DNA of 46,731 bases from Bacteroidia bacterium (GTDB taxonomy: Bacteria; Bacteroidota; Bacteroidia; SXHM01): NCBI GenBank assembly GCA_020054035.1, contig JAGVLY010000086.1:1-46731 (forward strand), read 5' to 3'. The notes below the pieces were generated by a model. The model worked only from the letters and a program-made list of their open reading frames with translations. It had not been told where the DNA came from and ran no database searches. A program made the translations under genes and the position numbers. Positions 5,389 through 26,071 of the stretch are shown piece after piece. Within the stretch, counting starts at the first letter, position 1; every line of letters begins with the position of its first letter.

Positions 5389-6981
5389 ATGACCTCCTCC
5401 GACCTCTTACATAAACTCATTCATTCGCTTAGCGCGGTTGAAAAACGGTATGTAAAGATTTTTCTGAAAGGCGATGATGATTTAAGCGGCAACACCTATT
5501 TGAACACCTTGTTTGCAGCATTGCTGAAACAGGAAAACTACAACGAGGCGGAGTTAAAAAACACAATCAGCGACCCGAAGCTGCGCAGAAATTTTGCGTT
5601 GTATAAAAACCTGTTACAGGAAAAAGTGCTGGATGCCCTTACCGCTTTTGACCGCCAAAGCACACCCGAACATAAAATTTACCGCAGGCTCGAAAATCAG
5701 CAAGCCCTGTGGCAGCGCGGACACCTGAACTTAGCCGAAAAAGAACTGGAAAAAGCGCAGAAAGATGCACAACTGCACGAACATTATTCGTTGCTGCTCG
5801 AAATTTTTAAACGCAAACGATTGACTATTCTTTCAGCATTTGATTCGCACACCGTTCAACGCCTGCAAAATAATATTGCCGCTGCACAAGAGGCACTGAA
5901 AAAGTTAGAGAACGAATCGGAATTCAATAACCTGTATGATTTGGCTTTTTCGGTAGGTAAAATAAAAGGACCGAATAAAATTGAGAACGATACCGATTTA
6001 GCACAAATTATTGCAAACCCGCTGTTGGGCGATGAAAAAAATACCATCACCTTTGATGCGAAACTGAAATTCTACGGAATATGGAGCAACTATTATTCTG
6101 CCAGCGGAAATGAAATCGGCAACCTGTATCACCGCAAAAAAATAATTGAAATCTGGAAACAGCATCCCGAAAAAATACAACAACTGAAATGGCGCTACCG
6201 TGTTTCGCTCGGCAACCTGGGGCTCGCATACCACCGCAACAGCTATTACCATGAGTTTGAAACCCTCCTCAGCGAGATGGAAGCCGTGGCAGGAAAAGGA
6301 AAAAACTATGACCCGCTTGCCTTTCGCACGCTCGAAAGCCTGCGCCAGATTTATTACGTGAGTACCGCACAGTTCAGCCGCCTGAGCGAATTGAAAAAAA
6401 GACTTGAAAACGGCATGGAGAACTACCGCGAAACGCTCGACATCGGTTTTTATATTACCACTTATTATAATCTATCTGTTGCAGAATTAATACAAGACAA
6501 TTATAGCGAAGCATTGAAATGGCTGAAAAAAATTACCGACCTGCCCCGCCACAACCTGCGTTTGGATATACAGCGATTTATACCCGCTTACCGCCTGATG
6601 ATTTTATACAGCCACAACAGCAGCCTGCTTGAATACGACCTGCGCAACGCACAGCGGTATTATGCCAAACATCCCGATAGCTATCGGGAGGGCTCGCTTG
6701 AAAGCCTTGTGCTGAAAAACATAAAGACCTTATACCTTTGCAACAGCCGCAACGAAAAGCAAACGCTACTCAATACCTTTAACCGTGATATGGAACAACT
6801 GCTTGCCCAACCCGGTAACAGCAACATGACGGGCATTGACGAAGTGTATTGCTGGGTAAAAGCACTGCTGCTGAATAAGCCCCTGCTGGAAGTGGCTACG
6901 CCTTATCTGCTGGCAAAAAATAAAAGTAAACAGGAGGTGGAAGGGATGTTGAGTGGGGTTGAAAAGGGAGGTAAGAAATAA
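5389..6981 (+). CDS. Cytoplasmic all-helical TPR-like hypothetical protein (530 aa)
   Basis: N-terminus LHKLIHSLSAVEKRYVK resembles a recurrent Bacteroidota hypothetical family (recalled, not searched). TPR-like segments SLGNLGLAYHR and TYYNLSVAELIQDNYSEALKWL; no signal peptide. Confidence 0.75.
   Translation: MTSSDLLHKLIHSLSAVEKRYVKIFLKGDDDLSGNTYLNTLFAALLKQENYNEAELKNTISDPKLRRNFALYKNLLQEKVLDALTAFDRQSTPEHKIYRRLENQQALWQRGHLNLAEKELEKAQKDAQLHEHYSLLLEIFKRKRLTILSAFDSHTVQRLQNNIAAAQEALKKLENESEFNNLYDLAFSVGKIKGPNKIENDTDLAQIIANPLLGDEKNTITFDAKLKFYGIWSNYYSASGNEIGNLYHRKKIIEIWKQHPEKIQQLKWRYRVSLGNLGLAYHRNSYYHEFETLLSEMEAVAGKGKNYDPLAFRTLESLRQIYYVSTAQFSRLSELKKRLENGMENYRETLDIGFYITTYYNLSVAELIQDNYSEALKWLKKITDLPRHNLRLDIQRFIPAYRLMILYSHNSSLLEYDLRNAQRYYAKHPDSYREGSLESLVLKNIKTLYLCNSRNEKQTLLNTFNRDMEQLLAQPGNSNMTGIDEVYCWVKALLLNKPLLEVATPYLLAKNKSKQEVEGMLSGVEKGGKK
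6672..6689. repeat. 18-bp perfect palindrome TCCCGATAGCTATCGGGA, in frame inside a CDS
   Basis: Self-complementary; identical copy at 26039-26056; encodes (H)PDSYR(E). Confidence 0.9.
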
Positions 6982-6983
6982 AA

Positions 6984-7475
6984 ATGAAAAAGATTGTAAC
7001 TGCTTTTATGTTATTGCTGGCTAATTATTCTTTTGCTCAAAAGAGTATTGATACAACTTCTGTTTTGAAAGCAATTAATGAGATTTCAAAAGAAATAGAG
7101 GATACTTTATTTGACGAAAATTCATATTATTATAGAGGTATGTATTATTATGGAATAGGTATGTATCATGAAGCGAAAAAAGATTTTGAAGAATTTATAC
7201 AAATCGGAAATATACGTGGGGGTATATTTATTAGCGGAGAAAAGCTTTATAATGTTTTATTATATATTGGTTGGATAGAGGGGTATTTTAAAGAGTCTGA
7301 AAAGGCAATCAAATATTATCAGGCAGCCTCAGAGATAGATAGTTTACAAAGCAAGCCATATTTTCAGCTAGGCCATGTTTATATGAATCGGGGCGATACT
7401 TTAAAAGCTTGTAGCTTTTTTAATAAAGCAAAGAAATTAGATAAGGATATAGAAATCCCAATAGATTGCAAATAA
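6984..7475 (+). CDS. Secreted TPR protein
   Basis: Sec signal MKKIVTAFMLLLANYSFAQ; TPRs YYYRGMYYYGIGMYHEAKKDFEE and PYFQLGHVYMNRGDTLKACSFFNKAKKL; visibly AT-rich. Confidence 0.8.
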   Translation: MKKIVTAFMLLLANYSFAQKSIDTTSVLKAINEISKEIEDTLFDENSYYYRGMYYYGIGMYHEAKKDFEEFIQIGNIRGGIFISGEKLYNVLLYIGWIEGYFKESEKAIKYYQAASEIDSLQSKPYFQLGHVYMNRGDTLKACSFFNKAKKLDKDIEIPIDCK

Positions 7476-7497
7476 TATAGCGTTCACTTGCCAACGC

Positions 7498-7556
7498 CAC
7501 CAACCCGCAACAACAAAAACCCTGATAGGTATCGGGGGAAATGAGGAAAGAAGATT
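7498..7556 (+). repeat. ~58-bp direct repeat, copy 1
   Basis: caccaacccgcaacaacaaaaaccctgataggtatcgggggaaatgaggaaagaagatt; differs from copy 2 by one substitution and one indel. Confidence 0.92.
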
Positions 7557-7559
7557 GAA

Positions 7560-7931
7560 ATGAAAAAACTCACATTTATAATATTATTAGCGATTTCACA
7601 TCCATCGTTTTCGCAATCACCATCAATTAACTTTAGTATTAGTGGAGATGTCGGCCTGTTCCGTTTTGACCCGGGCAGTTATGATAAAAAATATCCAAGC
7701 GAAGCATTAGAAAATGATGCTGATGGCATTGTGAGGATAGAACTCGCAATTGATTCGCTCTGTAATCTAATAGGATATAAAAATCTAAATCATATTGGCT
7801 ACGGATTAGATGAAGCAGGGCTTGAATTTATTTTAGCCCAGTATGAAAAGGCCAGAAAAGCTAAGCCCGATATAAAATGTGGGAATGGTGTATTGCATCA
7901 TGTTGTGACAGTTAATTTTAAACTTGAGTAA
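7560..7931 (+). CDS. Small secreted protein with a TonB C-terminal-like domain
   Basis: Sec signal ending SFSQ; KYPSEALENDADGIVRIELAID...IGYGLDEAG...VTVNFKLE fits the TonB_C pattern (YP..A....G.V...GYGLDE.A...V.F.L). Confidence 0.75.
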   Translation: MKKLTFIILLAISHPSFSQSPSINFSISGDVGLFRFDPGSYDKKYPSEALENDADGIVRIELAIDSLCNLIGYKNLNHIGYGLDEAGLEFILAQYEKARKAKPDIKCGNGVLHHVVTVNFKLE

Positions 7932-7978
7932 TTTATCTAAACCCTAACAAGCGGAAAGAAGGAAGGGATGAAAAACAT

Positions 7979-8036
7979 CACCAAACCGCAACAACAAAAC
8001 CCTGATAGGTATCGGGGGAAATGAGGAAAGAAGATT
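7979..8036 (+). repeat. ~58-bp direct repeat, copy 2 (abuts the HMG-CoA lyase stop codon)
   Basis: caccaaaccgcaacaacaaaaccctgataggtatcgggggaaatgaggaaagaagatt. Confidence 0.92.
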
Positions 8037-8883
8037 AAGCCGGAAACGTTTGCAAAGCCAGCAGCGAAGCTGCATCAAAAGCCTTTTTATTTATGCCTGT
8101 CTCCATCTTTTTCTCTTCAAAAAAACTCAGCAGATTTTCGGTAGGCATGTTGCCGGTTAATTTATCAGAGGCCATGGGGCAACCGCCAAAACCTTTGATG
8201 GCGCTGTCAAAACTGCGGCAGCCGCTGTTGTAGGCAGCCTCCACTTTTTCTTTCCATTTATCAGGAGTGGTGTGCAGGTGCGCACCAATTTCTAAATCCG
8301 GCAAGGCAGGAATAAGATTAGAAAACATGTAACTGATATTCTCCGGATTAGAGACACCGATGGTATCAGCCAATGAGAAATACTTAATACCTAATTGCGA
8401 AAGCTTTTGTGTCCAGCTGATAGCAATATCGCTGCTCCACTCATCACCGTAAGGGTTTCCGAAGGCCATGGAGATATACACCAACATTTTTTTATTGCGG
8501 TTGATGCAAATAGTTTGCACCTCCTCTACCCTTTTCAGGTTTTCTTCAATAGTAGAATTTCCGTTGCGCTGCTGAAATGTTTCGGAAATAGAAAACGGAA
8601 AACCGAGGTACGTGATTTCATCAAAAGCGGCAGCATCTTCCGCACCGCGCTTGTTAAGAATAATGGAAAGCAGCTTTGATTTTGTGCCTGTCATCTCCAG
8701 TTTACCAACCAATTCAGCCGTATCGCGCATTTGCGGAATGGCTTTGGGCGAAACAAAACTTCCGAAGTCAATGGTATCAAAACCCACTTTCAGCAGGGAG
8801 TTGATGTAAGCCGCTTTTTTTTCGGTGGGTATAAACTCGTGTATGCCTTGCATGGCATCACGCGGGCATTCGGTGATTTTCAT
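8035..8883 (-). CDS. Hydroxymethylglutaryl-CoA lyase
   Basis: ECPRDAMQ (DRE-TIM), SFVSPKAIPQMRD, LADTIG, HLH, GFGGCPMA, GNMPTE. Confidence 0.95.
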   Translation of the reverse strand: MKITECPRDAMQGIHEFIPTEKKAAYINSLLKVGFDTIDFGSFVSPKAIPQMRDTAELVGKLEMTGTKSKLLSIILNKRGAEDAAAFDEITYLGFPFSISETFQQRNGNSTIEENLKRVEEVQTICINRNKKMLVYISMAFGNPYGDEWSSDIAISWTQKLSQLGIKYFSLADTIGVSNPENISYMFSNLIPALPDLEIGAHLHTTPDKWKEKVEAAYNSGCRSFDSAIKGFGGCPMASDKLTGNMPTENLLSFFEEKKMETGINKKAFDAASLLALQTFPA

Positions 8884-8902
8884 AATTGCAAAAATACATT
8901 TT

Positions 8903-8979
8903 ATGCCACAAAGACACTAAGGCACAAAGCGTCACTAAATTTCTTTGTGTTTCTTAGTGGCTTTGTGCCTTAGTGGCAT
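8903..8979. repeat. Intergenic inverted-repeat element built from 8-nt units (CACAAAG/CACTAAG)
   Basis: atgccacaaag-acactaag-gcacaaag-cgtcactaa ... ctttgtgttt-cttagtgg-ctttgtgc-cttagtggcat. Confidence 0.85.
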
Positions 8980-8982
8980 TTA

Positions 8983-9582
8983 TTAAGCAGCAATCCTTTT
9001 TTCTTTAGCCTCGTTCATCATCTCCCTCAGATTAATAATTGCATAACGCATTCGTCCCAGTGCAGTGTTAATATTCACATTGGTCATTTCAGCAATTTCC
9101 TTGAAACTCATTTTGCCGTAGTGACGCATCAACACCACCTCTTTCTGTTCATCCTCAAGCCTGTCTATCATCGTACGGATTTCGTGTTCCATCTCACCAT
9201 CCATAATTTTTTCTTCCGCATTTTTTTCATCGTTTATCAGCAATCTGAAAACATCTACACTCTCCTCATCTTCATCAGCAGCATTATCCACAAACTGCAT
9301 TTTTTTGCCGTTACGAAAAAAATCCATGACCATGTTATGCGCAATACGCATAACCCAAGGAAGAAATTTACCTTCCTCTTTGTAGCTGCCTTTGTTCATG
9401 GTGTTAATCACTTTCAGAAAAACATCCTGGAAAATATCTTCAGCCACATTGCGCTGCTTAACTGTAAGCACTATGTAGGTGAAAATTTTGTTTTTGTGGC
9501 GTTTGAGCAGTTGCTCAAAGCAATTGTCGTTACCGTTAAGGTATCCGTTAATCAATTGCTCATCGGTTTGGTTGGATTGCAT
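8983..9582 (-). CDS. ECF sigma-70 factor
   Basis: Region 2 AEDIFQDVFLKV...FLPWVMRIAHN; region 4 MSFKEIAEMTNVNINTALGRMRYA. Confidence 0.95.
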   Translation of the reverse strand: MQSNQTDEQLINGYLNGNDNCFEQLLKRHKNKIFTYIVLTVKQRNVAEDIFQDVFLKVINTMNKGSYKEEGKFLPWVMRIAHNMVMDFFRNGKKMQFVDNAADEDEESVDVFRLLINDEKNAEEKIMDGEMEHEIRTMIDRLEDEQKEVVLMRHYGKMSFKEIAEMTNVNINTALGRMRYAIINLREMMNEAKEKRIAA

Positions 9583-9737
9583 AGTTCCTCCTTTTTTAGA
9601 ATTGTGTTAGAATTAAAAAGAGTAGAGGTTTGAACTATGGCAACAACGTATTTGGGTGAAGTAGAATTCGCTTATTTAAAAAGTAAACGTATAACCCAAA
9701 TTGTTTTCAGTTGTTTGATATGATGGGGACAAATGTA
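9580..9737 (-). promoter_or_regulatory. -7 box TACATTTG (9730-9737) and structured ~140-nt 5' leader with AAGGAGG SD
   Basis: Inverted pairs at 9580-9587/9632-9639 and 9650-9657/9694-9701; SD at 9587-9593. Confidence 0.55.
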
Positions 9738-9831
9738 AAACAAAATTTTATTCAAAATCAACAGACAGAATAAAATTCTTTAAAAATAGATTATTCACAC
9801 AGAAAACAGATGATTATTCTGTCGACACAAT

Positions 9832-11703
9832 CTACCATTTCATCAGCTTGTAGCTGCTGCTGAAGTTTTGGGTTGTTACATTCGTCAAATAAATTCCTGA
9901 AGAAAGGTTTTTAGGCGAGATCTTATACTCCAGAGAACCTGAAAATGATTCAGAAAAGATAATTCTTCCGGTTACATCAATCAATTCTGCTATTCCTGTT
10001 TGCGGAGAATTAAATCTCAATTCGGCACTACTGGAACCCTCTGCAAATCCAATACTGTTTATAAGCCTTACATCAGTATTGCCGGTATTATTTTCATGTA
10101 TTCCAATGCCGCAACCGCTAAAACCACGCTGATCAAGAAAATAAGATACTGTATAAACGTGCTGGGCGCTATTAAATGACTGGGCGCTTTGCAGAAGCAA
10201 ACAGGCTGCATCGTTCATAGTGATATTAGTTGCCAGATTATACATCGCTTCAATTAATATTTCATCGGCTGCCTCTCTTCCTATAGCATCCATAATTTGC
10301 ATCATGGTTGATGACCAAATCTCGGCATCTTTGTATAAATTGCTTTGTAAATCTTCGGGATAATGCTTGCTGCTTTCAACTACGCGACCATTCCAGAATT
10401 CATTGTGTCCGTCCCACGAAAAAATTTTCTCCCAGTTAAATGAGTTAATGGATTTAGAATACGAAGCTGCAAAATAATCTCCTATGGCTTCATCCAGTGC
10501 AGTTCGCTCTATGCCTTGATTAGTGCTCGGTGCAGCGGAATAAGAAATTGCATGGCCATATTCATGAATGATCACATCTGCATCTTCGGCATCATCTACT
10601 CCACCTTCACCAAAAGTTAAACGGGGACTGGGAGTTGATGAAAAGTTTGAATTATCAGCCCCGCCCATTCCATGTGCATCAACCAATATAGGGTAATCTA
10701 CAATATTATTAAACCCTAATGATTGAATATAATCATGATAAACATTAATATGGTAAAAAGCATTTACATCTTCAAAACCATCTTGTGAGCGCGTAAATTG
10801 AAAATCAGGGGTAAGACTTGTAACGGGAACAATATCAGGAATTGAATGATTATTAATCAAACAATACAGGCTTTCCAATTTAAACGTATCGTTTTCAAAC
10901 GCAACATCAATAGTAACCTGCTGGCGCTGCATATTCAACTGTGAAATATCTGCATCCGAAGCATCTTCATAAGGCGTTCCGTAAGTAACACCTGCTGTGG
11001 TAAGCGGATCGGGGTTAAACACTCTTGCAAGTGCAGGAGTATCTACATCATGAACTCTATTATTATTGAAATAATTATTCATGTCGCGTTCGTAAACAAT
11101 CATCTGTTCATCATTAATAACCAACTCAAAGAAATTACCTTTTTTATCCCACAGTTCAATACGTGAAGCTGGTATAAGTCTTGGTCCAAGATCAAAATAT
11201 AAATCCTCTATAAAGATCTTAACAATGTCGTTTTCTTCCTGATAAATTGATTTAATAATATCATAACAATCATCTGTATCCGGAAATTTTCCTGCCGGTG
11301 TTTCCACAATATGATAGGTATTATCAAACAGCGAAATAATGTTTCCGCTTTTATCTAAATTAATTTTTACTGTGCCGCGGTATATAGGTTTTCCTTGATA
11401 ATTCTGGCGATACAAATAATGAAAACCTGTTTTACTTTGTTTCCCTTCAAGGTATTCAACAGAAAAATCAGCGCCTCTTAAATTAGGAATAGCTGAAAGC
11501 AAATATTCTTTGACAAAAGCAGTATCAGTATTTTCAATTTTGCCGGAATTAAAAGAGGAAACAGCTTTACGCACATCAACCGGATGCGGTAATCGGCTTC
11601 CCATTCCGTCATTTATTTTTTGCCCGAAACTGAGAATCGGAAAAATTAGAACAATAAAAGCTATTAAGGCTGATACGAATTTACGATCGTTACTTTTTTG
11701 CAC
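9832..11703 (-). CDS. Secreted zinc metallopeptidase (M36/M4-like) with FTP-like propeptide and T9SS C-terminal domain
   Basis: Signal peptide; HYLYRQNYQGKPIY propeptide; DADVIIHEYGH...ALDEAIGD; CTD ...LSSGIYLTNV...YKLMKW. Confidence 0.85.
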   Translation of the reverse strand: MQKSNDRKFVSALIAFIVLIFPILSFGQKINDGMGSRLPHPVDVRKAVSSFNSGKIENTDTAFVKEYLLSAIPNLRGADFSVEYLEGKQSKTGFHYLYRQNYQGKPIYRGTVKINLDKSGNIISLFDNTYHIVETPAGKFPDTDDCYDIIKSIYQEENDIVKIFIEDLYFDLGPRLIPASRIELWDKKGNFFELVINDEQMIVYERDMNNYFNNNRVHDVDTPALARVFNPDPLTTAGVTYGTPYEDASDADISQLNMQRQQVTIDVAFENDTFKLESLYCLINNHSIPDIVPVTSLTPDFQFTRSQDGFEDVNAFYHINVYHDYIQSLGFNNIVDYPILVDAHGMGGADNSNFSSTPSPRLTFGEGGVDDAEDADVIIHEYGHAISYSAAPSTNQGIERTALDEAIGDYFAASYSKSINSFNWEKIFSWDGHNEFWNGRVVESSKHYPEDLQSNLYKDAEIWSSTMMQIMDAIGREAADEILIEAMYNLATNITMNDAACLLLQSAQSFNSAQHVYTVSYFLDQRGFSGCGIGIHENNTGNTDVRLINSIGFAEGSSSAELRFNSPQTGIAELIDVTGRIIFSESFSGSLEYKISPKNLSSGIYLTNVTTQNFSSSYKLMKW

Positions 11704-11715
11704 AAAAATGTTTTA

Positions 11716-13185
11716 TTATGGTTTTATTCCGCGAGTTCCATCTAACCAACCCTGCCAGTATTCAAATGCTTTCATAGGAACATCTAACTTGTTATCGTCA
11801 ATCATCTTTTGCACCTCATTACGGTTTTGCCTTTTCAATGTTACCTTATCAAGATTAGCAAAATGCAACATGGTAGCTGCTGCAATGGCAGAATTTATCT
11901 TCAGATTTTGCAGATTTACTTTGTCGTAGGTATCACTTTCGCAATGGTAATCTGAACAATAATTTGCGCCTTCCTGCATACCCACAAGATTGGGAACACC
12001 CTGCATCATAAAATCATAATTATCTGTGCCGACAATCGGAACATCTGCATTTTCAAAAGGACCAAGTGATGCAACACTTACCAATGCTTTTTTTGTTTCT
12101 GCATCCAACTCGGGACGGTTTCCTGTAAAGAAACCCGTAATTTTTCCGCTACCGATATCAATAGAAGCAATTACAATGTGTTTATTTAATTCCTTTTCAT
12201 GTTGCTGTGTATAAGCATAGGAACCACAAATACACTGCTCTTCGCCATTCCATAGTGCAAAGCGAATAGTACGCTTAGGTTTTATTCCAAGTAGGGTCAT
12301 TTGGCGGGCAATATCTATTACTAAAGAAACATTACAGCCATTGTCATTTGCTCCGGTTCCCATTCCCCAGGAGTCAAGGTGGGCACCAATCAACACAACT
12401 TCATCAGGCTTTTCACTGCCTTTTATTTCACCGATAACATTGTAAGAAGTGTATGAACCTCCTGTGGTCAATTCAATATTCAGATTGATATTCAACTTCC
12501 CACCTTTTTCAAGAATTCTTATACAGCGCGAGGCATCATCACGTGCCATTACAACAAGCGGAAGTGTATTATTATATCCGCGCGAAGCAAGATGACGAAA
12601 CAATAATTTTTTAGGGCGCGATGACATATAAACAACGCCTTTAACCTGTGCAGCCATTGCCCGTCCTTCTATTTCATGTGCATCATTATATTCTTTAAAT
12701 AGCCCACCCAGTTCGGTAAGTTCATCTGTTGTAACCAACACAAATTTGTCATTTACGTTATCTCCTGCTTTTTTAAAATCATCTTCTGTGCCGTAACCAA
12801 CTGAAACTAATTCAGCTTCCAAACCACTTGCATCTGTACCAATGGAAAAAGCCCGCGAAACTACACGCGGAGAAAAATTTGAAGCACCGGTAATTTTAGC
12901 GGTGCAACTTTTCTCATCCCAAAGCGAAGGCATTTGAAAGGCTTCTTTCTTTACCTCTACTCCTGCTTCTTTAAATTTCTTAATGCCCCACTCTATTGCT
13001 TTGGTGTTAGCTTCCGTTCCGGTTACGCGACCTCCAATTTTATCACAGAGCTCATGTAAATCATCCTGAATTTGAGTATGCCCCAACATTGCAGCAACAA
13101 GCCTTTCTGTTTCGCTGTTCTGAGCGTTTAAAATAATTGCGGGGAATAAAATAAGCGATAAAAAAAATGAAACGTGCTTTAGCAT
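11716..13185 (-). CDS. M28 family peptidase (carboxypeptidase Q-like) with PA domain
   Basis: IGAHLDSW, GANDNG, NGEEQ, GTDNYDF, YHCESD; signal peptide. Confidence 0.9.
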   Translation of the reverse strand: MLKHVSFFLSLILFPAIILNAQNSETERLVAAMLGHTQIQDDLHELCDKIGGRVTGTEANTKAIEWGIKKFKEAGVEVKKEAFQMPSLWDEKSCTAKITGASNFSPRVVSRAFSIGTDASGLEAELVSVGYGTEDDFKKAGDNVNDKFVLVTTDELTELGGLFKEYNDAHEIEGRAMAAQVKGVVYMSSRPKKLLFRHLASRGYNNTLPLVVMARDDASRCIRILEKGGKLNINLNIELTTGGSYTSYNVIGEIKGSEKPDEVVLIGAHLDSWGMGTGANDNGCNVSLVIDIARQMTLLGIKPKRTIRFALWNGEEQCICGSYAYTQQHEKELNKHIVIASIDIGSGKITGFFTGNRPELDAETKKALVSVASLGPFENADVPIVGTDNYDFMMQGVPNLVGMQEGANYCSDYHCESDTYDKVNLQNLKINSAIAAATMLHFANLDKVTLKRQNRNEVQKMIDDNKLDVPMKAFEYWQGWLDGTRGIKP

Positions 13186-14423: not shown

Positions 14424-14502
14424 TGCGATAGCTTTTACTTCAAAAAATACACAGCAAGTTTAGGAAAATATCTTTTAATCTGTTTTGTTTAAGTCAAATT
14501 AA

Positions 14503-14510
14503 TACTTTTG
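14503..14510 (+). promoter_or_regulatory. -7 promoter box TACTTTTG upstream of the riboswitch
   Basis: TAnnTTTG match with an upstream TTTG near 14483. Confidence 0.6.
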
Positions 14511-14520
14511 CCCCCAAGCG

Positions 14521-16735: not shown

Positions 16736-16814
16736 CAACTAATACTAACAATCAACTAGCGAAGCGATTTCTTTAATACCAATAAAAAACAAATAATAAC
16801 CATAAAAAAAAACC

Positions 16815-17858: not shown

Positions 17859-17877
17859 AAATATCTGAAACAAAGTA

Positions 17878-17916
17878 AGAAGCGGAAATACTTTGCAGTA
17901 TTTCCGCTTCTCTTTA
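17878..17916 (+). terminator. Probable intrinsic terminator after btuG
   Basis: 15-bp stem agaagcggaaatact-ttgc-agtatttccgcttct followed by cttta. Confidence 0.7.
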
Positions 17917-17942
17917 TATATTCGCCAATAAACTATTTTAAC

Positions 17943-18386
17943 ATGAAATACTTTGCCACAATTTTAACGCTTACTATCCTCATTACTTCCTGCACAAAGG
18001 AGAAAATAAAATCAGAATTAATACTTGGCGACTGGCAGATAAATGCACTAACCGTTGACCCTCCACAAGTAGTGAATAACATTATAATAACTAACCTGTA
18101 TGCACAAATGGAAGATTGCGACAAGGATAATACACTCAGCTTTTTTGACAACAAAACCTACAAAGCAGATGAGGGTGCCACCAATTGCGATTCGCTTGAC
18201 CCGCAAAACATTTCGGGCAATTGGATGTTTTTAAACAACGAAACTGAACTGCGTTTAATATACCAGAGCGATACTATTGTATATAACGTGATTGACCTTG
18301 ATGAAGAATTATTGAAAATGAATTATTCCCAGCGCGACAGCAATAACATCATGCATACACTTTCTGTAACATTTGAGCATTTATAA
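17943..18386 (+). CDS. Lipocalin-like lipoprotein
   Basis: Lipobox ITSC; LILGDW; DCDKDNTLSF...ADEGATNC...GNW. Confidence 0.75.
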   Translation: MKYFATILTLTILITSCTKEKIKSELILGDWQINALTVDPPQVVNNIIITNLYAQMEDCDKDNTLSFFDNKTYKADEGATNCDSLDPQNISGNWMFLNNETELRLIYQSDTIVYNVIDLDEELLKMNYSQRDSNNIMHTLSVTFEHL

Positions 18387-18389
18387 ATC

Positions 18390-19361
18390 ATGAGTGTTAT
18401 CCAAAGAGTGATTGACCGAATGAAACCGGGCGAAGATATCGGTCTTGACCATGTTGGCCAGAAAGGGAGACAGCGTTCCATCAATCCCGATGGCTCTTAT
18501 AATCTGGAACGCAAAACAGGAAGGCTGTTCGGAAACTTCTTTCTGTTCAACTGGCTTATCACTACTTCATGGACAAACTACTGGATTGCACTGGTGTGTT
18601 TTTATCTTTTCGACAATGTTGTTTTCGGAAGCCTGTATTATTGGTTAGGCTCTGAAAATCTTTACGGAATTGTAGGCACAACTGAGTTCGACAAATTCAT
18701 GAGTTGCTTCTTTTTCAGTTGCCAGACCTTTACCACTGTTGGCTATGGCGGGCTTCATCCTATTGGAAAAATAGCCAGCTCTATGGCTGCCATTGAAGCA
18801 TTTCTTGGCCTTATGGCCTTTGCAGTAGCAACAGGAACATTGTATGGTCGCTTCTCAAGACCAAAAGCACGGATAAAATACAGCCCCAACATTATTATTG
18901 CACCCTTCAAAGGAAAAACTGCCATGCAGTTTATAGTAGCCAACGAAATGAATACCGTTTACATGGGAATGGAAGCCAAAGTAAACATCAGTTGGCAGGA
19001 AGATGAAGGTAGCGGCAAAACAGTAAGACGCTTTCAGCAAGTAAAATTAGAGATTGATAAAATAACCATGTTCCCCACCAGCTGGACCATCAATCACCCC
19101 ATTGATGAGGAGAGTGCCTTATACGGGAAAACACAAAGTGATATACAAAAAATGGATCTGGAGATTTTTGTTTTGCTCAAAGGCTTTGACGATACCTTTT
19201 CACAAACTATTTACAGCCGCCAATCTTATACATCTGAGCAATTTGTGTGGGGCGCAAAATTCCGCAGACCTTTTGGTGTAAACGCTGCCGGAAAATTAGA
19301 AATGGATTTAACCAAAGTTGGCGAATACGACAAAGCAGATATTGTTCATCTGGTGAGTTAA
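18390..19361 (+). CDS. Inward-rectifier potassium channel (KirBac-like)
   Basis: Two TM helices around FFFSCQTFTTVGYG; GRFSRP; WTINHPIDEESALYG; cytoplasmic Kir domain. Confidence 0.93.
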   Translation: MSVIQRVIDRMKPGEDIGLDHVGQKGRQRSINPDGSYNLERKTGRLFGNFFLFNWLITTSWTNYWIALVCFYLFDNVVFGSLYYWLGSENLYGIVGTTEFDKFMSCFFFSCQTFTTVGYGGLHPIGKIASSMAAIEAFLGLMAFAVATGTLYGRFSRPKARIKYSPNIIIAPFKGKTAMQFIVANEMNTVYMGMEAKVNISWQEDEGSGKTVRRFQQVKLEIDKITMFPTSWTINHPIDEESALYGKTQSDIQKMDLEIFVLLKGFDDTFSQTIYSRQSYTSEQFVWGAKFRRPFGVNAAGKLEMDLTKVGEYDKADIVHLVS

Positions 19362-20044
19362 GCCTGCTTCTTCAAAAACTCCCGCTCCAATACATCCGAA
19401 CGGCTGATAATAGCCCGAAGCCAGTCAATTTTTATTTCTAATATTTCTTCATCTGACAGTTTCCAGTTCAGCTCTGACTGACGAAGTTTTAAATTGAGAT
19501 GGTGCATACAAATAGCTGCCGAAACCGAAATATTCAGACTTTCAGTAAAGCCAACCATTGGTATTTTCACAAACTCATCGGCATTTTGCAATGCAATATC
19601 CGATAAGCCGTCTATCTCGGTGCCGAACATTAAAGCAAACTTGGTATCAATTTTCAACTCTTCCAGCGGAACACTTTGATAATGGGGCGTTGTGGCAACA
19701 ATACGATAGCCTTTCTTCTTCAGGGTGTCTACACATTCCAGCGTGTTGTTAGCGTTCCAGTTGTATTTGTGCATGTTCAGCCATTTGGATGAACCCAACT
19801 CCACATCAGGATTTAGTTTGTACTTGTTTTTGTTCTCAATAATATGAACGTCCTGCACACCAAAACAATCGCAGGTTCTCAACACAGCACTGGCATTCTG
19901 CGACTGATAAATATCTTCCAATACAACCGTAAAATGGCGGGTGCGATTCACAATCACATCATTCAGGCGCTTATGCCTTTCATCGGTAATAAATTGGGCA
20001 AAATATTTATATAAATTCTCTTTTTCAGGAACAGTCATAATCAT
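19358..20044 (-). CDS. trmH: SpoU/TrmH family RNA 2'-O-methyltransferase
   Basis: NASAVLRTCDCFG, FGTEIDGLS, IPMVGFTESLNISVSAA. Start at 20044 or 20038, supported by a TACTTTTG box at 20054-20061. Confidence 0.9.
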   Translation of the reverse strand: MIMTVPEKENLYKYFAQFITDERHKRLNDVIVNRTRHFTVVLEDIYQSQNASAVLRTCDCFGVQDVHIIENKNKYKLNPDVELGSSKWLNMHKYNWNANNTLECVDTLKKKGYRIVATTPHYQSVPLEELKIDTKFALMFGTEIDGLSDIALQNADEFVKIPMVGFTESLNISVSAAICMHHLNLKLRQSELNWKLSDEEILEIKIDWLRAIISRSDVLEREFLKKQA

Positions 20045-20143
20045 TATTTGCAGCAAAAGTAAAAGAAGATAAATGTTCTTCGGTAAATATTTCTTAACTT
20101 TAACCAACTAATGCCGTAAAACATTCACCAAAACAGAAGTATT

Positions 20144-20776
20144 ATGGACAAAAAATTAATTTTCCGTACAGGATTTTCAGTATTGCTCTCTATCCTTTTT
20201 TTTACTGCAAGCGCTGCTATTCATGAAGTAATGGTTTCAAGCAACCAATTCAATCCAAACTCCTTAAATGTAAATGTTGGAGACACTGTACGTTTTATGT
20301 GGATGAATGGAAGTCATACCACTACATCAGTAAGTATCCCAGTAGGGGCAGCAACTTGGGACTCCCCTATGACCAGCAGCGTTTCGCAATTTGATTATAA
20401 AGTAACCGTTGCTGGAAGCTATGGCTATAAATGCACACCACATGCCTTAGGTGGTATGGTTGGGTCTTTTACCGCAAGCGGCACTACAGGCATTGACCTT
20501 GGTGATGTAATCAACTTAACTTCACTTTATCCTAATCCGTTCAGCAACGAACTCTTTATTGAGCAAGGAAACGAACAACCTGAATACACTCAGATTTCTA
20601 TTTCAGATATTTTAGGCAAACAAATAAAAAGCATCACGATTGAGAGTCTTTCTGTTGTATCAATTGGCAAAAGAAGAATTGATGTTGGTGAACTTCCGAA
20701 GGGAATTTACTTCGTAACGCTGAAAGGCAACGGAGCAAAAGCAAAGACTATCCGCTTAGTTAAGGAAGGTGTCTAA
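20144..20776 (+). CDS. Plastocyanin/azurin-like cupredoxin with T9SS C-terminal domain
   Basis: FNPNSLNVNVGDTV, H(TTTS), YKCTPHALGGM type-1 Cu ligands; YPNPF...ISDILGK...GIYFV...LVK CTD. Confidence 0.88.
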   Translation: MDKKLIFRTGFSVLLSILFFTASAAIHEVMVSSNQFNPNSLNVNVGDTVRFMWMNGSHTTTSVSIPVGAATWDSPMTSSVSQFDYKVTVAGSYGYKCTPHALGGMVGSFTASGTTGIDLGDVINLTSLYPNPFSNELFIEQGNEQPEYTQISISDILGKQIKSITIESLSVVSIGKRRIDVGELPKGIYFVTLKGNGAKAKTIRLVKEGV

Positions 20777-20791
20777 AAGCAGCCCCGTCTA

Positions 20792-21460
20792 TTATTTCTT
20801 CCAGCCCATCTTTTGGTGCTCTGCATCATTTGTATCAAACAAATGCGGGTAATATTCCTGTAATGAATTGATAAAAAGTTCGCGGGGAACATCAGCGAAC
20901 GTACCGAAATCATGAAGATATTCCATGAATTTTTTGCCACCCGCAAATTCGTGGAAAATAGAATCATTAATACCATCAAACTCCAGAGATGCCACTCCGA
21001 ATTTATCGCAGAGTGATCTATTGAATGCAGGCGTTGCTTTCACCCATTTTCCATTCAGAAATAATTCAGTGAAACCGTGGAAAACAAAAACATCGCTACG
21101 TAATAAATCAAGCAATTTCTGAGTAGATAAATGATTTTTAACATTTGCAAAACCAAGCCGTGCAGGAATACCAACTGCGCGTGCTGCTGCTGCAAGCAAT
21201 GTTGCTTTTTCACCGCAATATCCTGAACCTCTTTTCAAGGTTGCACTGCCCTTCATGGCCTCTGCGTTTAAGTCAACATGGTATGGATCATAGAGAAAAT
21301 TATCACGAACGGCATAATAAAGTTTTACTGCTTTTCCAATATCGGTAGTTGCGCCTTCCGTATGCTTTTTTGCAAAAGCAATTACATCGGGCGAATCACT
21401 GTCTATATAATAAGCCGGAGCTAAATAAATTGCTAAATCTTGTTTTTCTTTGGTTTCCAT
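20792..21460 (-). CDS. Transglutaminase-like superfamily protein
   Basis: GYCGEKA...ARAVGIPARLGFANVKNHL...HGFTELFLNGKWVKATPAF. Start METKEK at 21460, with a TATTTTTG box at 21469-21476. Confidence 0.88.
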   Translation of the reverse strand: METKEKQDLAIYLAPAYYIDSDSPDVIAFAKKHTEGATTDIGKAVKLYYAVRDNFLYDPYHVDLNAEAMKGSATLKRGSGYCGEKATLLAAAARAVGIPARLGFANVKNHLSTQKLLDLLRSDVFVFHGFTELFLNGKWVKATPAFNRSLCDKFGVASLEFDGINDSIFHEFAGGKKFMEYLHDFGTFADVPRELFINSLQEYYPHLFDTNDAEHQKMGWKK

Positions 21461-21497
21461 AATGGCTGCAAAAATACGGTATTTTAGCGCAGTAAAT

Positions 21498-22127
21498 ATG
21501 TTCACTCCATTCATCCATTCACTTGAACAGCGCCTGCAACAAACCCTGCCGGGAGCTGAAGCGCAGTTTAAAATGGCTTCACAGTTTAGGTTGCCGATTG
21601 ACATGGAACAGTTTGATTTGAGCAAAGCAAGAAAAGGTGCTGTTCTTATTCTGCTCTATCCTCATGGGGATAAAATCAACACAGTGCTGACACTTCGCCC
21701 ATCTTACGATGGCGTACACAGCGGACAGGTAAGTTTTCCGGGAGGCAAACTTGACCCCGAAGATGAAAGCCTTGCTGCTGCTGCCTTACGTGAAGCAGAA
21801 GAAGAAGTGGGATTAAACAGAAATGAAGTAACGCTTATCGGAAATCTGACCGATCTTTACATACCGCCCAGCAACTTTTTAGTCTCTCCGTTTGTGGGAA
21901 TAATGGATAAAAAACCTGTGCTGACAAAAAATGAACGCGAAGTGGAAAAGATAATTGAAGTGCCCATCACCTACTTCCTTGACGAAAGCATAAAAGGAAA
22001 AAAAATGATTACACCCCGCGAGTTTGTATCATTTGAAGCACCCTATTACGATGTGGAAGGCCACACCGTTTGGGGTGCAACAGCCATGATGCTGAGCGAA
22101 ATGATGGAGGTAATCAGACAATTATAA
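21498..22127 (+). CDS. NUDIX hydrolase, CoA pyrophosphatase (NudL/PCD1-like)
   Basis: LTLR...HSGQVSFPGG, ALREAEEEVGL, VWGATAMML; start MFTPF at 21498. Confidence 0.92.
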   Translation: MFTPFIHSLEQRLQQTLPGAEAQFKMASQFRLPIDMEQFDLSKARKGAVLILLYPHGDKINTVLTLRPSYDGVHSGQVSFPGGKLDPEDESLAAAALREAEEEVGLNRNEVTLIGNLTDLYIPPSNFLVSPFVGIMDKKPVLTKNEREVEKIIEVPITYFLDESIKGKKMITPREFVSFEAPYYDVEGHTVWGATAMMLSEMMEVIRQL

Positions 22128-23602
22128 TGGCTCACGCACTTTCTAAATCGTCTTTTATCCGTGGGATGCAGTGCATCAAATCACTTTACCTCTACAAGCA
22201 CAATTACAAACTGCGCGATGCAATAAGTCCTTCGCAGCAGGCGCTTTTCTCAAGAGGAATAAATGTGGGAAAAATTGCGCAGGATATTTTTCCGGGCGGT
22301 GTGGATGTTACTCCCGAAAGCGTTTTCAAGTATTCTGTATCAGTTGAGAAAACACGTAAACTAATTGAAGAAGGAATAGAAATTATTTACGAAGCCGCAT
22401 TCATTTTCAATGATGTGCTGGCTGCCGTTGACATTCTTGTAAAACGTGATGGGAAATGGTTTGCATACGAGGTAAAAAGTTCAACGCGCGTGAGCGATGT
22501 GTACCGCTTAGATGCTTCGCTGCAGTATTACGTGATTACTAATGCGGGAATTAATCTTGCAGATTTTTCTATTCTGCATCTTAACAATCAATATATAAGA
22601 AAAGGAAAGATAGAACCGGAGAATTTATTTACTGCTGTTTCACTGCTCAGCGAGTGCGAAAAAAATCAAACGATGATTGCTGACAAAGTGCGCGAACTGA
22701 AAGATGTTTCCTCGCTTTCTTCGGTGCCTGCTATTAAAATAGGTAAGCATTGTTTTGAGCCTTATGCCTGCGATTTCATGGGGCAATGCTGGAAAAATGT
22801 ACCGCAGAATTCGGTATTTGAACTGGCGGGTATGAGCAAAGAAAAACAGTTTGAGCTATTTGATAGCGGCATTGTGAAAATAAGTGATGTGCCACCCGAT
22901 TATTCACTGGAGAAAAATCAACGGATACAGGTAGATGCCACCAATTCAGGAAAAGAACTGATTGACAAAACAGCGATTGACAAGTTTCTCTTCAGGATCA
23001 ATTACTCGGTTTACTTCTTCGACATTGAAACGTTTATGCCTGCTGTGCCAATGTTTGATGGCACCAGCCCCTTTCAGCATATTCCTTTTCAGTATTCGTT
23101 GCATTATAAAAAAGCAAAAGATGCGCCTTTACAGCACATTGAGTTTTTAGCAGAATCAGGGCTTGACCCGCGCAAAGAATTTATCACCCATTTTCTGGAA
23201 AGCACAAAAGATGCTGTCTGCATATTAGTTTATAACCGCATGTTTGAAAGTTCGGTTATTGCAAGGCTGGGAAATGATTTCCTGGAACTGAAACCCGAAA
23301 TAGAAAAGCGTCTCGCGATTATGATAGATCTGATGGAGCCTTTTCAAAAACGGCATTATTATCATCCTTTGATGAAAGGTTCGCACTCCATAAAGAATGT
23401 ATTACCTGCGCTATTCCCTGATTTCAATCACAAGAATTTAGCAATCAGTGATGGCACCATGGCTATGGGTGCTTTTGAACAACTGCAAACCGAAACCGAT
23501 ATTTTTAAAATTGCTGAACTGCGCGACAACCTGCTAGAGTATTGCAAACTGGATACGTTGGCGATGGTGAAAATCTTTGAATTTCTGGAAAAGATTAATT
23601 AA
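22127..23602 (+). CDS. DUF2779-like protein: Cas4/RecB-like PD-(D/E)XK nuclease fused to an RNase H-fold DEDD exonuclease-like domain
   Basis: LSKS...QC, IYEAAF...VDIL...EVKSS, QYYV, CxxPYxCxFxxxC; FFDIET, VYNRMFE, YCKLD. ATG 22127 overlaps the NUDIX stop (TAATG). Confidence 0.82.
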   Translation: MAHALSKSSFIRGMQCIKSLYLYKHNYKLRDAISPSQQALFSRGINVGKIAQDIFPGGVDVTPESVFKYSVSVEKTRKLIEEGIEIIYEAAFIFNDVLAAVDILVKRDGKWFAYEVKSSTRVSDVYRLDASLQYYVITNAGINLADFSILHLNNQYIRKGKIEPENLFTAVSLLSECEKNQTMIADKVRELKDVSSLSSVPAIKIGKHCFEPYACDFMGQCWKNVPQNSVFELAGMSKEKQFELFDSGIVKISDVPPDYSLEKNQRIQVDATNSGKELIDKTAIDKFLFRINYSVYFFDIETFMPAVPMFDGTSPFQHIPFQYSLHYKKAKDAPLQHIEFLAESGLDPRKEFITHFLESTKDAVCILVYNRMFESSVIARLGNDFLELKPEIEKRLAIMIDLMEPFQKRHYYHPLMKGSHSIKNVLPALFPDFNHKNLAISDGTMAMGAFEQLQTETDIFKIAELRDNLLEYCKLDTLAMVKIFEFLEKIN

Positions 23603-23637
23603 CCACAGAGGCACAGAGAACATAGAAGTTCATTGAG
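23601..23637 (+). repeat. Single arm of an 8-9-mer repeat element (CACAGAG)
   Basis: aaccacagag-gcacagag-aacatagaag-ttcattgag between convergent stop codons. Confidence 0.6.
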
Positions 23638-23638
23638 G

Positions 23639-24202
23639 CTAAACACCCAGTGTTTTCAGCAGATAGCCGAGGAAGGAGATAAACATAAACACCATTCCAA
23701 GAATAATCAATCTGTTTACTGCCACTTCTTTATTACCTGTTTTGGCGGGTTGAAAATTCACCATCATAACAGAAAACAATTCAGATGCCCTTGAAGAAAA
23801 CGTTTTCTCTTCGCCTGTTAGCCTGTTCAGTTTATTGTTCAATAGGTAGGTCATGTAAAGACTTAATGCCAATAATATCGCAAGAAAAAAAGAGAACAAG
23901 GCAATTGATTTATTAACGTATTTTTCGTAACCTGAAGTGACGCTCAATCTGTTTATCGTCTCTTTCTGGCTTTTAAAAATAGCTTCATCCATGATTTTAA
24001 TAATGTGCAAATTTTCGATGTAGCTGCTGTTCTCCGTTGTGTTCAAACTGTCAATGTTTCTGCCATTTAATATGCGTTCGTTTTCTTTAACAAGCTGCTC
24101 TCTTTTATTTAGCATGTCGTAGGTTTCACCAATATCGGCTTGCACTGTGGCGAAACAGCTGAACAGAAAAAGAAATATAAAAAATCTCAACATCATTTTC
24201 AA
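23639..24202 (-). CDS. Hypothetical membrane protein
   Basis: Signal peptide, helical extracytoplasmic part, two hydrophobic segments. Confidence 0.7.
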   Translation of the reverse strand: MKMMLRFFIFLFLFSCFATVQADIGETYDMLNKREQLVKENERILNGRNIDSLNTTENSSYIENLHIIKIMDEAIFKSQKETINRLSVTSGYEKYVNKSIALFSFFLAILLALSLYMTYLLNNKLNRLTGEEKTFSSRASELFSVMMVNFQPAKTGNKEVAVNRLIILGMVFMFISFLGYLLKTLGV

Positions 24203-24220
24203 TAGAAGCCGCGAAAATAA

Positions 24221-26014
24221 TTATTTAATCACAACCGTTGTGTTGCCTTTTTCCATGCCATCTTCAGTAAGTGTACATAAGTAATTACCCGCTCTCTGCT
24301 TTGAAACATCAACTGTAAAACCGCTTGTGGTGATGTCTGTCTTTGTAAGAATTACTTTTCCCGAAATATCATACAACGTGAACACATAGTTTGCTCCCTG
24401 TTTAATTTCTGTGAACTGAATAGTTATAAGATTGGATGCCGGATTAGGATACACTTCCAGGCGATTGTACTTTTTTGTGCCTGCCGTTTCTTTTACTCCC
24501 GCCACAAAACCATCTTCAAAAGTCCAACAGTTGAAAACGGTGCCCTCGTTGTCAACAATGCACATACGCACTGAATCATTTCCGAATATTTCCACTCTTC
24601 CGAAACTGGTGTGGAAATTATTATTTCCTAATCCGCTGCCACCTTTGTTCCAGAGTGAATCCAGCACGGGTGGCTGACCTATTAGTGAGCCCACCGAGTC
24701 CATAACATGGTACAGTTTTATTTTACTTTCATCCACCCCCATAGCCGAAGAATTGAATTCAGGTATTCCTGAATTGGTGCCGTCATCCATTGCTGAGGTG
24801 TGTGTATCTCCCGAGAGCAAGATCACATTACGGATATTATTATTTCTGATAAAATGAATGAGTGTATCCTGATCGGCCGGAAAACCTGGCCAGCCATCGG
24901 CAAAGCCTGTTGCCATGGTCATGCCACTGCCACCGCTGCCGCCTATGTCTAAAGTGTTGCGCTGAAATCCAAGCCCCACATTTATCACACGTTTCAATGC
25001 TTTGTTAAACGTTGTTCCCGAGAGCAGGAACTTCCATTTTGCAGTAGAATTTTGCAATCCGTTCAGCAGCCATTGCATTTGTGTTGTACCCAGTATGGTG
25101 TGTCCGGGCAGAGGCGAAAATTCCCAGGGGAAACTTACATCGGTGCTGTCGTAATAAAAGGCTTCGTTGTTGGGCGAACGTGAGCTGCGGTTGTCGAGGA
25201 AAAAGAAATCGGCATTGCCCACCGTAAACTTATGATACAAACCCTGCGAAGTGTCAACCGCACTGTAGCCCGGAAAATAATCCAGCCAGCCGTTGATGGA
25301 GTTGATGCGCTCGTGCGCACCAAGCGGTGCATCAATCAAAACGGTTTCCAATCCGTTGGGGCCGGTGTAGGTAGCCTCCAATGATTGCGTGTTCATAGAA
25401 CTGTTGTTATCGGTATAGTCATGGTCGTCATACACGTATGCAAGAGGTATAGAACGCAGGATAGGAGCTATTCCCGGATAGGAATATTTAGCATGGTAAG
25501 ACGCTGTTACATAATCAAAGTCTTCAGAGAATTCATCGGCTGCATCGGGGTAAGTAAAATCACCCAACTGAATAAACAGATCAGGCTGCTGAGAAGCCAT
25601 AGCAGAAAAAAGCGGTGTCATATCACTACCTTTCATGCAGGAGCCAAATGCAAAGGAAAAATCTGTGGCCGCGCCTGGTTGCGGAAAGGTGGTGAACGAA
25701 GATACAACCGTATCCTGCTGCTGATTTACAAAATAGCGGCAGTAGTAAAGCGTATTAGGTTGAAGTCCGTTTACGGTAATAATAGCGCTGGTATCTTTTA
25801 ATGTTCTTAAGCTATCATTAAAGGAAATTGGGTTGCTGAAGCCGGCATCGGTATCTAATTGAACCTGCACATCGCCTGCCTGATTGCTGCGGATAAAAAT
25901 GCGCGCAGAAACATTGGTTACTGCACCGGCAACAGGGCCGAACAAGATATTCTGGGCGGAAGCAGTGAGAAGGTAAGAGAGTGAGAAAGTGAGAAAGAGA
26001 ATTGTTTTGTTCAT
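24221..26014 (-). CDS. phoD: PhoD-like alkaline phosphatase with T9SS C-terminal domain
   Basis: AFGSC, LGDFTYPD, DDHDY, LDNRSSR, DGWPGF, SGDTH; CTD YPNPA...YDISGK...GNYL. Confidence 0.88.
   Translation of the reverse strand: MNKTILFLTFSLSYLLTASAQNILFGPVAGAVTNVSARIFIRSNQAGDVQVQLDTDAGFSNPISFNDSLRTLKDTSAIITVNGLQPNTLYYCRYFVNQQQDTVVSSFTTFPQPGAATDFSFAFGSCMKGSDMTPLFSAMASQQPDLFIQLGDFTYPDAADEFSEDFDYVTASYHAKYSYPGIAPILRSIPLAYVYDDHDYTDNNSSMNTQSLEATYTGPNGLETVLIDAPLGAHERINSINGWLDYFPGYSAVDTSQGLYHKFTVGNADFFFLDNRSSRSPNNEAFYYDSTDVSFPWEFSPLPGHTILGTTQMQWLLNGLQNSTAKWKFLLSGTTFNKALKRVINVGLGFQRNTLDIGGSGGSGMTMATGFADGWPGFPADQDTLIHFIRNNNIRNVILLSGDTHTSAMDDGTNSGIPEFNSSAMGVDESKIKLYHVMDSVGSLIGQPPVLDSLWNKGGSGLGNNNFHTSFGRVEIFGNDSVRMCIVDNEGTVFNCWTFEDGFVAGVKETAGTKKYNRLEVYPNPASNLITIQFTEIKQGANYVFTLYDISGKVILTKTDITTSGFTVDVSKQRAGNYLCTLTEDGMEKGNTTVVIK
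25952..26014 (-). repeat. 63-nt inverted repeat, copy A (signal-peptide coding region of the phoD-like gene)
   Basis: 56/63 nt identical to 27751-27813 by manual alignment, with a 32-nt exact core CAATTCTCTTTCTCACTTTCTCACTCTCTTAC. Confidence 0.92.
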
Positions 26015-26030
26015 AGTTATTTTTGTGTTA

Positions 26031-26071
26031 GCCCTTCGTCCCGATAGCTATCGGGAATGCTCAGGGTGACA
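26031..26071. repeat. REP copy interrupted by the 18-bp palindrome (26039-26056)
   Basis: gcccttcg[tcccgatagctatcggga]atgctcagggtgaca versus gcccttcg[act]acgctcagggtgaca at 5189-5214. Confidence 0.88.

Follow-up and report, generated by a model that had tools for sequence, protein, structure and literature searches.

A candidate gene-less hairpin element of 18 nucleotides in the genes, repeats and phages of Bacteroidota

The DNA analysed here, which we call the window, is a whole contig (C84) of 46,731 nucleotides from a Bacteroidia bacterium, whose genome assembly comprises 1.87 Mb in 126 contigs, is 68% complete and has a G+C content of 40.7%. It carries two copies of the 18-bp perfect palindrome TCCCGATAGCTATCGGGA, at 6672-6689 and 26039-26056. 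The first lies inside a forward-strand open reading frame (ORF; 5389-6981), whose 530-aa product has no significant Pfam family in the profile search and a sub-threshold match to TPR_10 only. The second is nested at the apex of a larger repeat, a repetitive extragenic palindrome (REP), in the divergent intergenic region between a PhoD-like/type IX secretion system (T9SS) gene and the next gene. The 18-mer forms a hairpin with the 7-bp stem TCCCGAT/ATCGGGA and a 4-nt loop, usually AGCT, and its computed DNA fold is -5.9 kcal/mol (z = -3.6). Two of its three reading frames are open and encode PDSYR and PIAIG, whilst the third contains TAG; both open frames are used in real genes. An earlier note on the window had read the palindrome as a tiny, frame-preserving insertion element spread in trans, able to add peptides to proteins and to nest inside other REPs. 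The identity of the two copies, the in-frame position of the first and the two stop-free frames, from which that note argued, are all borne out.

The palindrome is strongly over-represented. A search of the window with up to three mismatches returned the two exact copies and no third match, and none of 100 shuffled windows held two matches, in line with a chance expectation of none. In the whole genome it occurs four times exactly, seven times with up to one mismatch and 14 times with up to two or three. We surveyed 41 related genomes, eight of the genus and 33 of other families, counting matches with at most one mismatch and using the pattern read backwards as a control, which gave no match in any of the 41. 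The 18-mer was present in 15 of them, namely all eight of the genus (7-34 copies) and seven of the 33 from other families, where the copy numbers were 85 (genome G012), 10, 5, 3, 2, 1 and 1. The exact sequence is found in every genome of the genus and is patchy across the class. An exact-match scan of one genome per prokaryotic species returned at least 127 stretches, a count that leaves room for copies outside Bacteroidota. Among the matches listed, 124 of 127 loci carry titles of taxa that we take to belong to Bacteroidota, including a complete chromosome and isolates, among them species of Flavobacterium, Lacibacter, Algoriphagus, Aequorivita and Mucilaginibacter, and the orders represented are Flavobacteriales, Chitinophagales, Sphingobacteriales, Cytophagales and Bacteroidales; the other three are titled 'uncultured bacterium', a 'metagenome' chromosome and a bin labelled Variovorax. 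The 18-mer is also found in 52 stretches of viral contigs. One viral record (G041), with Mu-like portal, Mu F, terminase, capsid and holin genes, has six copies in its first 11 kb, which lie within intergenic heptamer arrays and are in some cases nested in partial copies of themselves. Heptamer periodicity is striking in this phage and weak for the flanks of the 18-mer overall (6/130 sites vs 3/252 controls).

Comparison with homologues reveals three in-frame insertions in this incomplete genome. In the gene of the 530-aa protein, the site ca/TCCCGATAGCTATCGGGA/g is read from codon caT to codon GAg as H-P-D-S-Y-R-E, and all five homologues aligned (83, 66, 65, 65 and 33% identity) have a gap of 3-4 residues exactly there. 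At the DNA level the window has aaa ca/18-mer/g ggc where the homologue L002 has aaa caa cca ccc ggc, a net gain of 12 nt, and where the 86% identical metagenome contig L175 has aaa gaa aac aag ccc ggc, a net gain of 9 nt. As every outgroup is short at HPDSYRE, the gain lies in the lineage of the window. Eleven sequencing runs were examined, each of which holds a small share of the stretch (run X2 yielded no contig). Contigs from runs X1, X3 and X5, with 92-93% identity and a depth of 3-4, cross the site ungapped; two have the intact 18-mer and that of X1 has two substitutions inside it. The insertion is therefore later than the split from the L175 lineage and has been inherited since. At contig depths of 2-4 overall, these data speak to the presence of the insert in the relatives shown and not to empty alleles or habitat.

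The other two insertions lie in other genes of the same genome. An SGNH/GDSL hydrolase (C32:1700) reads YRKS-IPIAIGTN-F, whilst YRxSKP(D/E)F, without the five residues, is the reading in 13 of the 14 homologues aligned (58-91% identity); the fourteenth (P0007, 87% identity) has IPVATG at the site, a decayed copy. All five orthologues from the genus lack the five residues, and the empty site, tcg a/aac/cagac ttt, fits a replacement of AAC with a net gain of 15 nt. In the AlphaFold model of this hydrolase the insert (residues 91-98) is mostly coil between a helix (84-89) and a strand (99-103) that leads to the GxND block, with residue 97 scored as bridge; the predicted local distance difference test score of the insert is 65, compared with 78 and 85 on either side. 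The third case is a protein with a T9SS tail (C22:9034), which reads IPDSYRV (ACCCGATAGCTATCGGGT), where the 86% identical orthologue in genome G003 lacks the five residues, again a net gain of 15 nt. Another protein with a T9SS tail (C79) has two further copies in that tail, both diverged. None of the three comparisons reveals a target duplication, and the net gain is +9 to +15 nt rather than +18 because at least three target bases were replaced. The idea of a frame-preserving element that adds peptides thus holds, with a smaller gain than the full unit that the earlier note had assumed. Among 122 exact copies from across the phylum whose flanks are complete, eight fall in a reading frame that stays open for 90 codons or more in both directions; the reading is PIAIG in four of them and PDSYR in the other four. 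Judged by their predicted peptides, the host genes of these eight candidate insertions look like those for RNase HII, AroA, GlnRS, serine dehydratase and a response regulator.

The loops of variant copies show that whole 18-mer units are copied. Among the 40 one-mismatch variants listed from related genomes, 36 differ solely within the central 4 nt, where a uniform distribution of differences would place 22%. For G012, 49 of the 85 copies were listed (17 exact and 32 with one mismatch), and every difference among the 32 variants is central. With both orientations merged, the loops form the sub-families AGCC/GGCT (13), AGAT/ATCT (8), AACT/AGTT (7), AGCA/TGCT (3) and AGGT (1). Asymmetric loops that recur so many times imply that entire 18-nt units were copied from existing copies and did not arise by fold-back of one arm.

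Nesting, which the earlier note had proposed from a single case, is common across genomes, and many copies interrupt the middle of another repeat, of a tRNA-gene fragment or of a simple palindrome. For the nine copies with a recognised consensus of the host repeat or tRNA fragment, the replaced apex bases are AAC (three), AGT (three), GTT (one), AACT (one) and AGTT (one); none of the nine has a target duplication, and 3-4 nt are lost instead. These nine came from a loosened recognition of the host consensus, the stricter version of which recognised three. By eye, the copies on C13 and C81 of the own genome, the tandem units of L027 and L159 follow the same rule, and one host repeat with an AACT apex is of the GCTGAAC-TTGTTTCAGC type. 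Where the host repeat can be recognised, the target consensus is therefore an AACT/AGTT hairpin apex. The tRNA-like hosts are partial duplicates adjoining intact tRNA genes and not functional tRNAs. Such partial copies, either 5' halves or copies split at the anticodon loop, were observed at L027:1480-1687 (G026:C24), L122, L159, L072 and L129, with the 18-mer in the D-loop or the anticodon loop; the fragment in G026 forms a 74-bp tandem array of at least three units at a contig end.

Across 174 sites and 679 control positions, the flanks of the element have no conserved sequence, yet they are not random. T directly before the element (-1) is found at 13/174 sites vs 194/679 controls, A directly after it (+1) at 7/174 vs 205/679, and the flank class G|T plus its mirror A|C at 58/174 vs 75/679. 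The two flanks also tend to pair with each other. A flank-flank duplex energy of -8 kcal/mol or lower was computed for 33 of 148 sites, compared with a mean of 14.1 and a maximum of 24 after shuffling of partners and with 7.7% of control positions; counting perfect runs gives a modest signal (stems of at least 6 in 9/148 sites vs 1.2 expected), less clear than the energy-based test.

The copy at 26039 is the best resolved example of nesting in the window. It forms part of a composite repeat on the forward strand (26031-26071), in which the arms gcccttcg and atgctcagggtgaca surround the 18-mer. The empty form of the host REP, gcccttcg-act-acgctcagggtgaca, lies at 5189-5214 on the same strand, and its inverted partner, with the stem CGGT/ACCG instead of CCCT/AGGG, at 5139-5164 on the reverse strand. 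Comparison of the composite with the empty repeat (cccttcg-act-acgctcagggtgaca, 5190-5214) confirms that 'act' was replaced, with one additional substitution (acg to atg). The earlier note had called the two forms empty and filled alleles; as they are paralogous copies of a repeat family and not two states of one locus, that term is wrong. No 12-mer of the genome is more frequent than the core of the host REP, GAGCGTAGTCGA, which has 42 copies, whereas the full unit has about 23-25. In the two inverted REPs of the window (5139-5214), 24 nt apart, this 12-nt loop is the conserved part and the stems differ, so that the stem appears to covary around the loop. Host REPs of the form TTCG-ACTA-CGCTCA number 35 empty and three filled in the genome, and a fourth copy (C49:12536) lies in this REP too, at a displaced position. 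A loose pattern search for other fillers in this REP returned mostly chance pairs. The host REP is itself found inside a gene in G003: in the orthologue of the C22 T9SS-tail gene (G003:C19, L183) the sequence GTCACCCTGAGCGTAGTCGAAGGG lies in frame at the codons for VTLSVVEG, where it overwrites an unrelated stretch of equal length (24 nt, of which 8 are shared with the own genome), an overwrite and not an insertion.

From the over-representation of the 18-mer, its spread through the phylum and its phages, the insertions seen against homologues, the replaced apex bases and the copied loop variants, we propose, with a probability of roughly 60%, that it is a copy of a miniature, gene-less hairpin element of Bacteroidota that is copied in trans. 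New copies would be made from existing ones and placed into DNA without target duplication, with a preference for other hairpins, at whose apex they would take the place of 3-4 bases in a loop of the AACT/AGTT type. In coding DNA only frame-keeping events in tolerant loops would survive, adding about 3-5 residues as PDSYR or PIAIG, and an inserted copy would then be passed on vertically and decay like ordinary sequence. By analogy, the copying may be carried out by a trans-acting protein on single-stranded hairpin DNA; the nearest model is a Y1/HUH-type enzyme because of the hairpin recognition, the short specific target and the absence of duplication. A bolder version, which we offer tentatively and hold to be rather doubtful, is that the 18-nt hairpin would be mobile as a unit of its own, complete in itself and perhaps smaller than any mobile DNA described so far, and that a putative enzyme would swap the AACT/AGTT apex trinucleotide in single-stranded DNA for a copy of the element, spreading it across the phylum with phages as carriers and adding small loops to proteins.

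Several observations weigh against a dedicated element copied in trans, and we set them out here together with the explanations that they favour. The first concerns the nested copies. The junction TTCG/18-mer/ACGCTCA (up to three mismatches) is present in all eight genomes of the genus (3, 1, 2, 13 in G003, 1, 2, 1 and 1 copies) and in none of the 33 other relatives. The filled REP is therefore a recurrent composite, which is either one old nesting spread with its host REP or the result of repeated hits on the same apex, and the copy at 26039 may have arisen without an insertion of its own and is by itself no evidence of a recent one. That one old nesting made a composite REP, since spread as a unit by whatever moves the host REP, has in our judgement about even odds for the REP-nested copies, that at 26039 included. 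The shared junction speaks for it; the arms, which differ among composites (CCC/GGG vs GGT/ACC stems and a CTCG...CGCTCG variant), the shifted copy C49:12536 and the same apex trinucleotide hit in unrelated hosts speak against it. This explanation covers the nested copies alone and is compatible with a hairpin element copied in trans.

The second group of unfavourable observations concerns the machinery. No mobilising gene was found in searches of the related genomes for REP-associated tyrosine transposase (RAYT) genes, for DUF559 genes and between pairs of copies. Y1_Tnp (RAYT/IS200-like) genes are present in 35 of the 41 relatives, that is, in 15/15 with the element and in 20/26 without it, so that presence does not discriminate, and the link is rejected on adjacency at the loci examined. 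In the own genome, the repeat on either side of the RAYT-like gene (C24:4280-4624) is a different one. In G016:C120 another family flanks the RAYT gene, and one 18-mer, 180 bp downstream of the gene, sits within a third repeat, whilst seven further RAYT loci had no 18-mer. A link with DUF559 is likewise rejected, with genes in 11/15 genomes that have the element and 14/26 that lack it, and copies at none of 12 DUF559 loci. For the three G012 copy pairs that lie 2-5 kb apart, a reading of the listed ORFs in between, made without Pfam, recognised no nuclease; three more pairs, spaced 50-152 bp apart, lie between genes, within other repeats. A nuclease gene flanked by copies, which the earlier note had proposed to look for, was thus not found at G012 copy pairs, RAYT loci or DUF559 loci. 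Neither of the outcomes that the note had named as refuting its reading, homologues with the same residues and no indel and an 18-mer that is not over-represented, was obtained. What stands of that note's insertion element are the over-representation, the insertions and the nesting; the spread in trans is still an inference. Furthermore, neither a polymorphic empty/filled site at one locus nor a new insertion event was seen in the contigs, all of low depth, and about three quarters of the copies lie outside any obvious larger hairpin. Lastly, the exact edges of the coding insertions cannot be placed with certainty, since protein identity to the closest relatives with an empty site is 82-91%.

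These negative results lend some weight to the main rival, namely that no dedicated enzyme exists and that replication or repair gives rise to the copies through template switching or short-patch gene conversion. On this view a nascent strand that stalls at the apex of a hairpin would find a few bases of microhomology on another copy, anneal there, copy it and return. The replacement rather than duplication of target bases, the variable net gains (+9, +12, +15) and the lack of a transposase linked to the element are all in keeping with such a process. So is the fact that two of the three genes have CCCGA or CCCGG at the site even in its empty form, which fits microhomology-primed copying and counts against a dedicated element, and the 24-nt overwrite by the host REP in the G003 T9SS-tail gene resembles a conversion patch. 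However, the patchy distribution (26 of 41 genomes of the class without the 18-mer and one with 85 copies) is hard to reconcile with a universal replication error, and the marked flank and apex preferences, together with a phage that has six copies within 11 kb, suggest an agent that is both active and host-specific. We regard template switching as unlikely, though well ahead of the last alternative. That the palindrome is a functional site kept by selection, whether as an operator bound by a dimeric protein or as an RNA hairpin with a role in termination or stability, with its presence in genes incidental, is very improbable. In its favour are the conserved 7-bp half-sites around a variable central 4 nt, as in many operators, and the position of some copies between genes or after stop codons. 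It does not explain lineage-specific insertions inside coding sequences that then decay (P0007, run X1), and it is further opposed by copies central in unrelated repeats, tRNA-gene fragments and phage intergenic heptamer arrays and by positions that are not conserved between genomes.

A hairpin element copied in trans would share features with several known systems and match none. The small dispersed repeats (SDR) of Nostocaceae cyanobacteria, reportedly described by Elhai et al. in 2008 (Genome Res 18:1484), are said to be gene-less, 21-27 nt long and in some cases endowed with a central palindrome; they are reportedly nested in one another and found beside heptamer repeats, with mobility inferred from comparing related sequences. 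Set against this definition, the 18-mer is alike in being a very short, gene-less, dispersed and nested repeat with comparative evidence of insertion. It differs in its phylum, its shorter length (18 nt), its perfect palindrome, its occurrence in phage genomes and its three homologue-verified in-frame insertions; this separation is one of description and not of sequence comparison, and the heptamer association of the 18-mer is weak overall. The Rickettsia palindromic elements (RPE), which Ogata et al. reportedly described in 2000, are said to be about 100-150 bp long, to lie in frame in protein genes and to be translated as an extra surface peptide; Rickettsia is an obligate intracellular alphaproteobacterium. 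The 18-mer likewise lies in frame in protein genes, by predicted translation, but its unit is 18 bp and adds 3-5 residues, compared with the about 100-150 bp of RPE.

Hairpin recognition, a short specific single-strand target and the absence of duplication are shared with the IS200/IS605 family and its gene-less palindrome-associated transposable elements (PATEs), according to the accessible parts of PMC6006769 and PMC4853749. As presented there, those elements have sub-terminal hairpins and guide sequences, for which 18 nt are too short, and they delete no target bases. REPs, REPINs (their inverted doublets) and their RAYT genes resemble the 18-mer as short dispersed hairpin repeats with sub-families, no target duplication and a plausible single-strand mechanism, as far as the accessible parts of PMC3116915, PMC3733652, PMC3479197 and PMC3337134 describe them, and RAYT-like genes are present in every genome with the 18-mer (15/15). 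By the definition in PMC3733652, a REP hairpin carries at its foot a conserved tag of four nucleotides, GTAG or CGTC. Neither tetranucleotide is present in TCCCGATAGCTATCGGGA, and its flanks are not conserved. No inverted doublets were found, as the 14 copies of the own genome and 148 sites across the phylum are all solo. The 18-mer has half the usual unit size, lies also inside genes and belongs to a family other than those beside the RAYT-like genes examined. Without the tag, doublets or RAYT adjacency, it does not belong to REP/REPIN. A miniature inverted-repeat transposable element, the derivative of a DDE transposon with terminal inverted repeats and target-site duplication, is rejected as well, with no duplication at any of the nine sites with a known host or in the coding cases. 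A search of the full-text literature, with subscription papers outside its coverage, found no description of this element, or of its 14-mer core, in Bacteroidota. Compared with these systems, the 18-mer is unusually small, phylum-wide and phage-carried, with a definable apex target.

Other repeats of the window and genome deserve mention in their own right. The earlier note had seen degenerate versions of the palindrome at 7520-7537 and 8000-8017; both exist, as ccctgataggtatcgggg, with differences at 4 of 18 positions. Each lies within one unit of a 58-59-nt direct repeat (7498-7556 and 7979-8036, with one substitution and one indel between the units), so that they reflect a single duplicated block and not two insertions. 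The repeat stands on either side of a 123-aa TonB_C-like ORF (7560-7931), the one ORF between the two copies, an arrangement suggestive of either an intergenic block that was duplicated or a small cassette that was inserted. Beside the composite at 26039, the ORF at 26057-27706 starts with an ATG inside the composite and weakly matches Gp38, an adhesin of phage tail fibres (E = 3.8e-10); the real start codon probably lies downstream of the composite. At least six further abundant families of short repeats are present in the genome, for example CGTCATTGCGAG, CTGAAACAAGTTCAG, GCCACAGATTACACAGAT, CCCTCTCCAAAGGAGAGGG, CTAAGTGCCTATACCAAT and TGCGCCTTTGCGAG, and several of them act as hosts of the 18-mer in other genomes. 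A repeat of the ctacaaacaggtcgctcctacggagc type lies on both sides of the RAYT-like gene in C24:4050-4800 (Y1_Tnp, 84 bits), a classical REP-RAYT arrangement unrelated to the 18-mer. On contig C120 of the own genome (G000), the acetyl-CoA synthetase gene (L201:523-2931) carries an in-frame DUF559 (Vsr-like endonuclease) domain in the middle of the enzyme (match L201:1501-1812), bracketed by PNPSPRGKG and LSPFGGAGGG, peptide words typical of other hairpin repeats; several DUF559 matches in relatives also lie within open frames of 700-1900 aa.

For the biology of the Bacteroidota, the finding provides a concrete source of small indels in proteins, with three in one incomplete genome and candidates elsewhere in RNase HII-, AroA-, GlnRS- and serine-dehydratase-like genes. 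It explains some of the unusual peptide words (PDSYR, PIAIG, VTLSVVEG) and of the short, spurious ORFs in annotations of this phylum. The apparent AACT/AGTT apex target makes a trap assay simple to design. If a hairpin of 18 bases can indeed be copied to new sites, it would set a lower size limit for mobile DNA and would point to a joining activity specific for hairpin apices in a large bacterial phylum.

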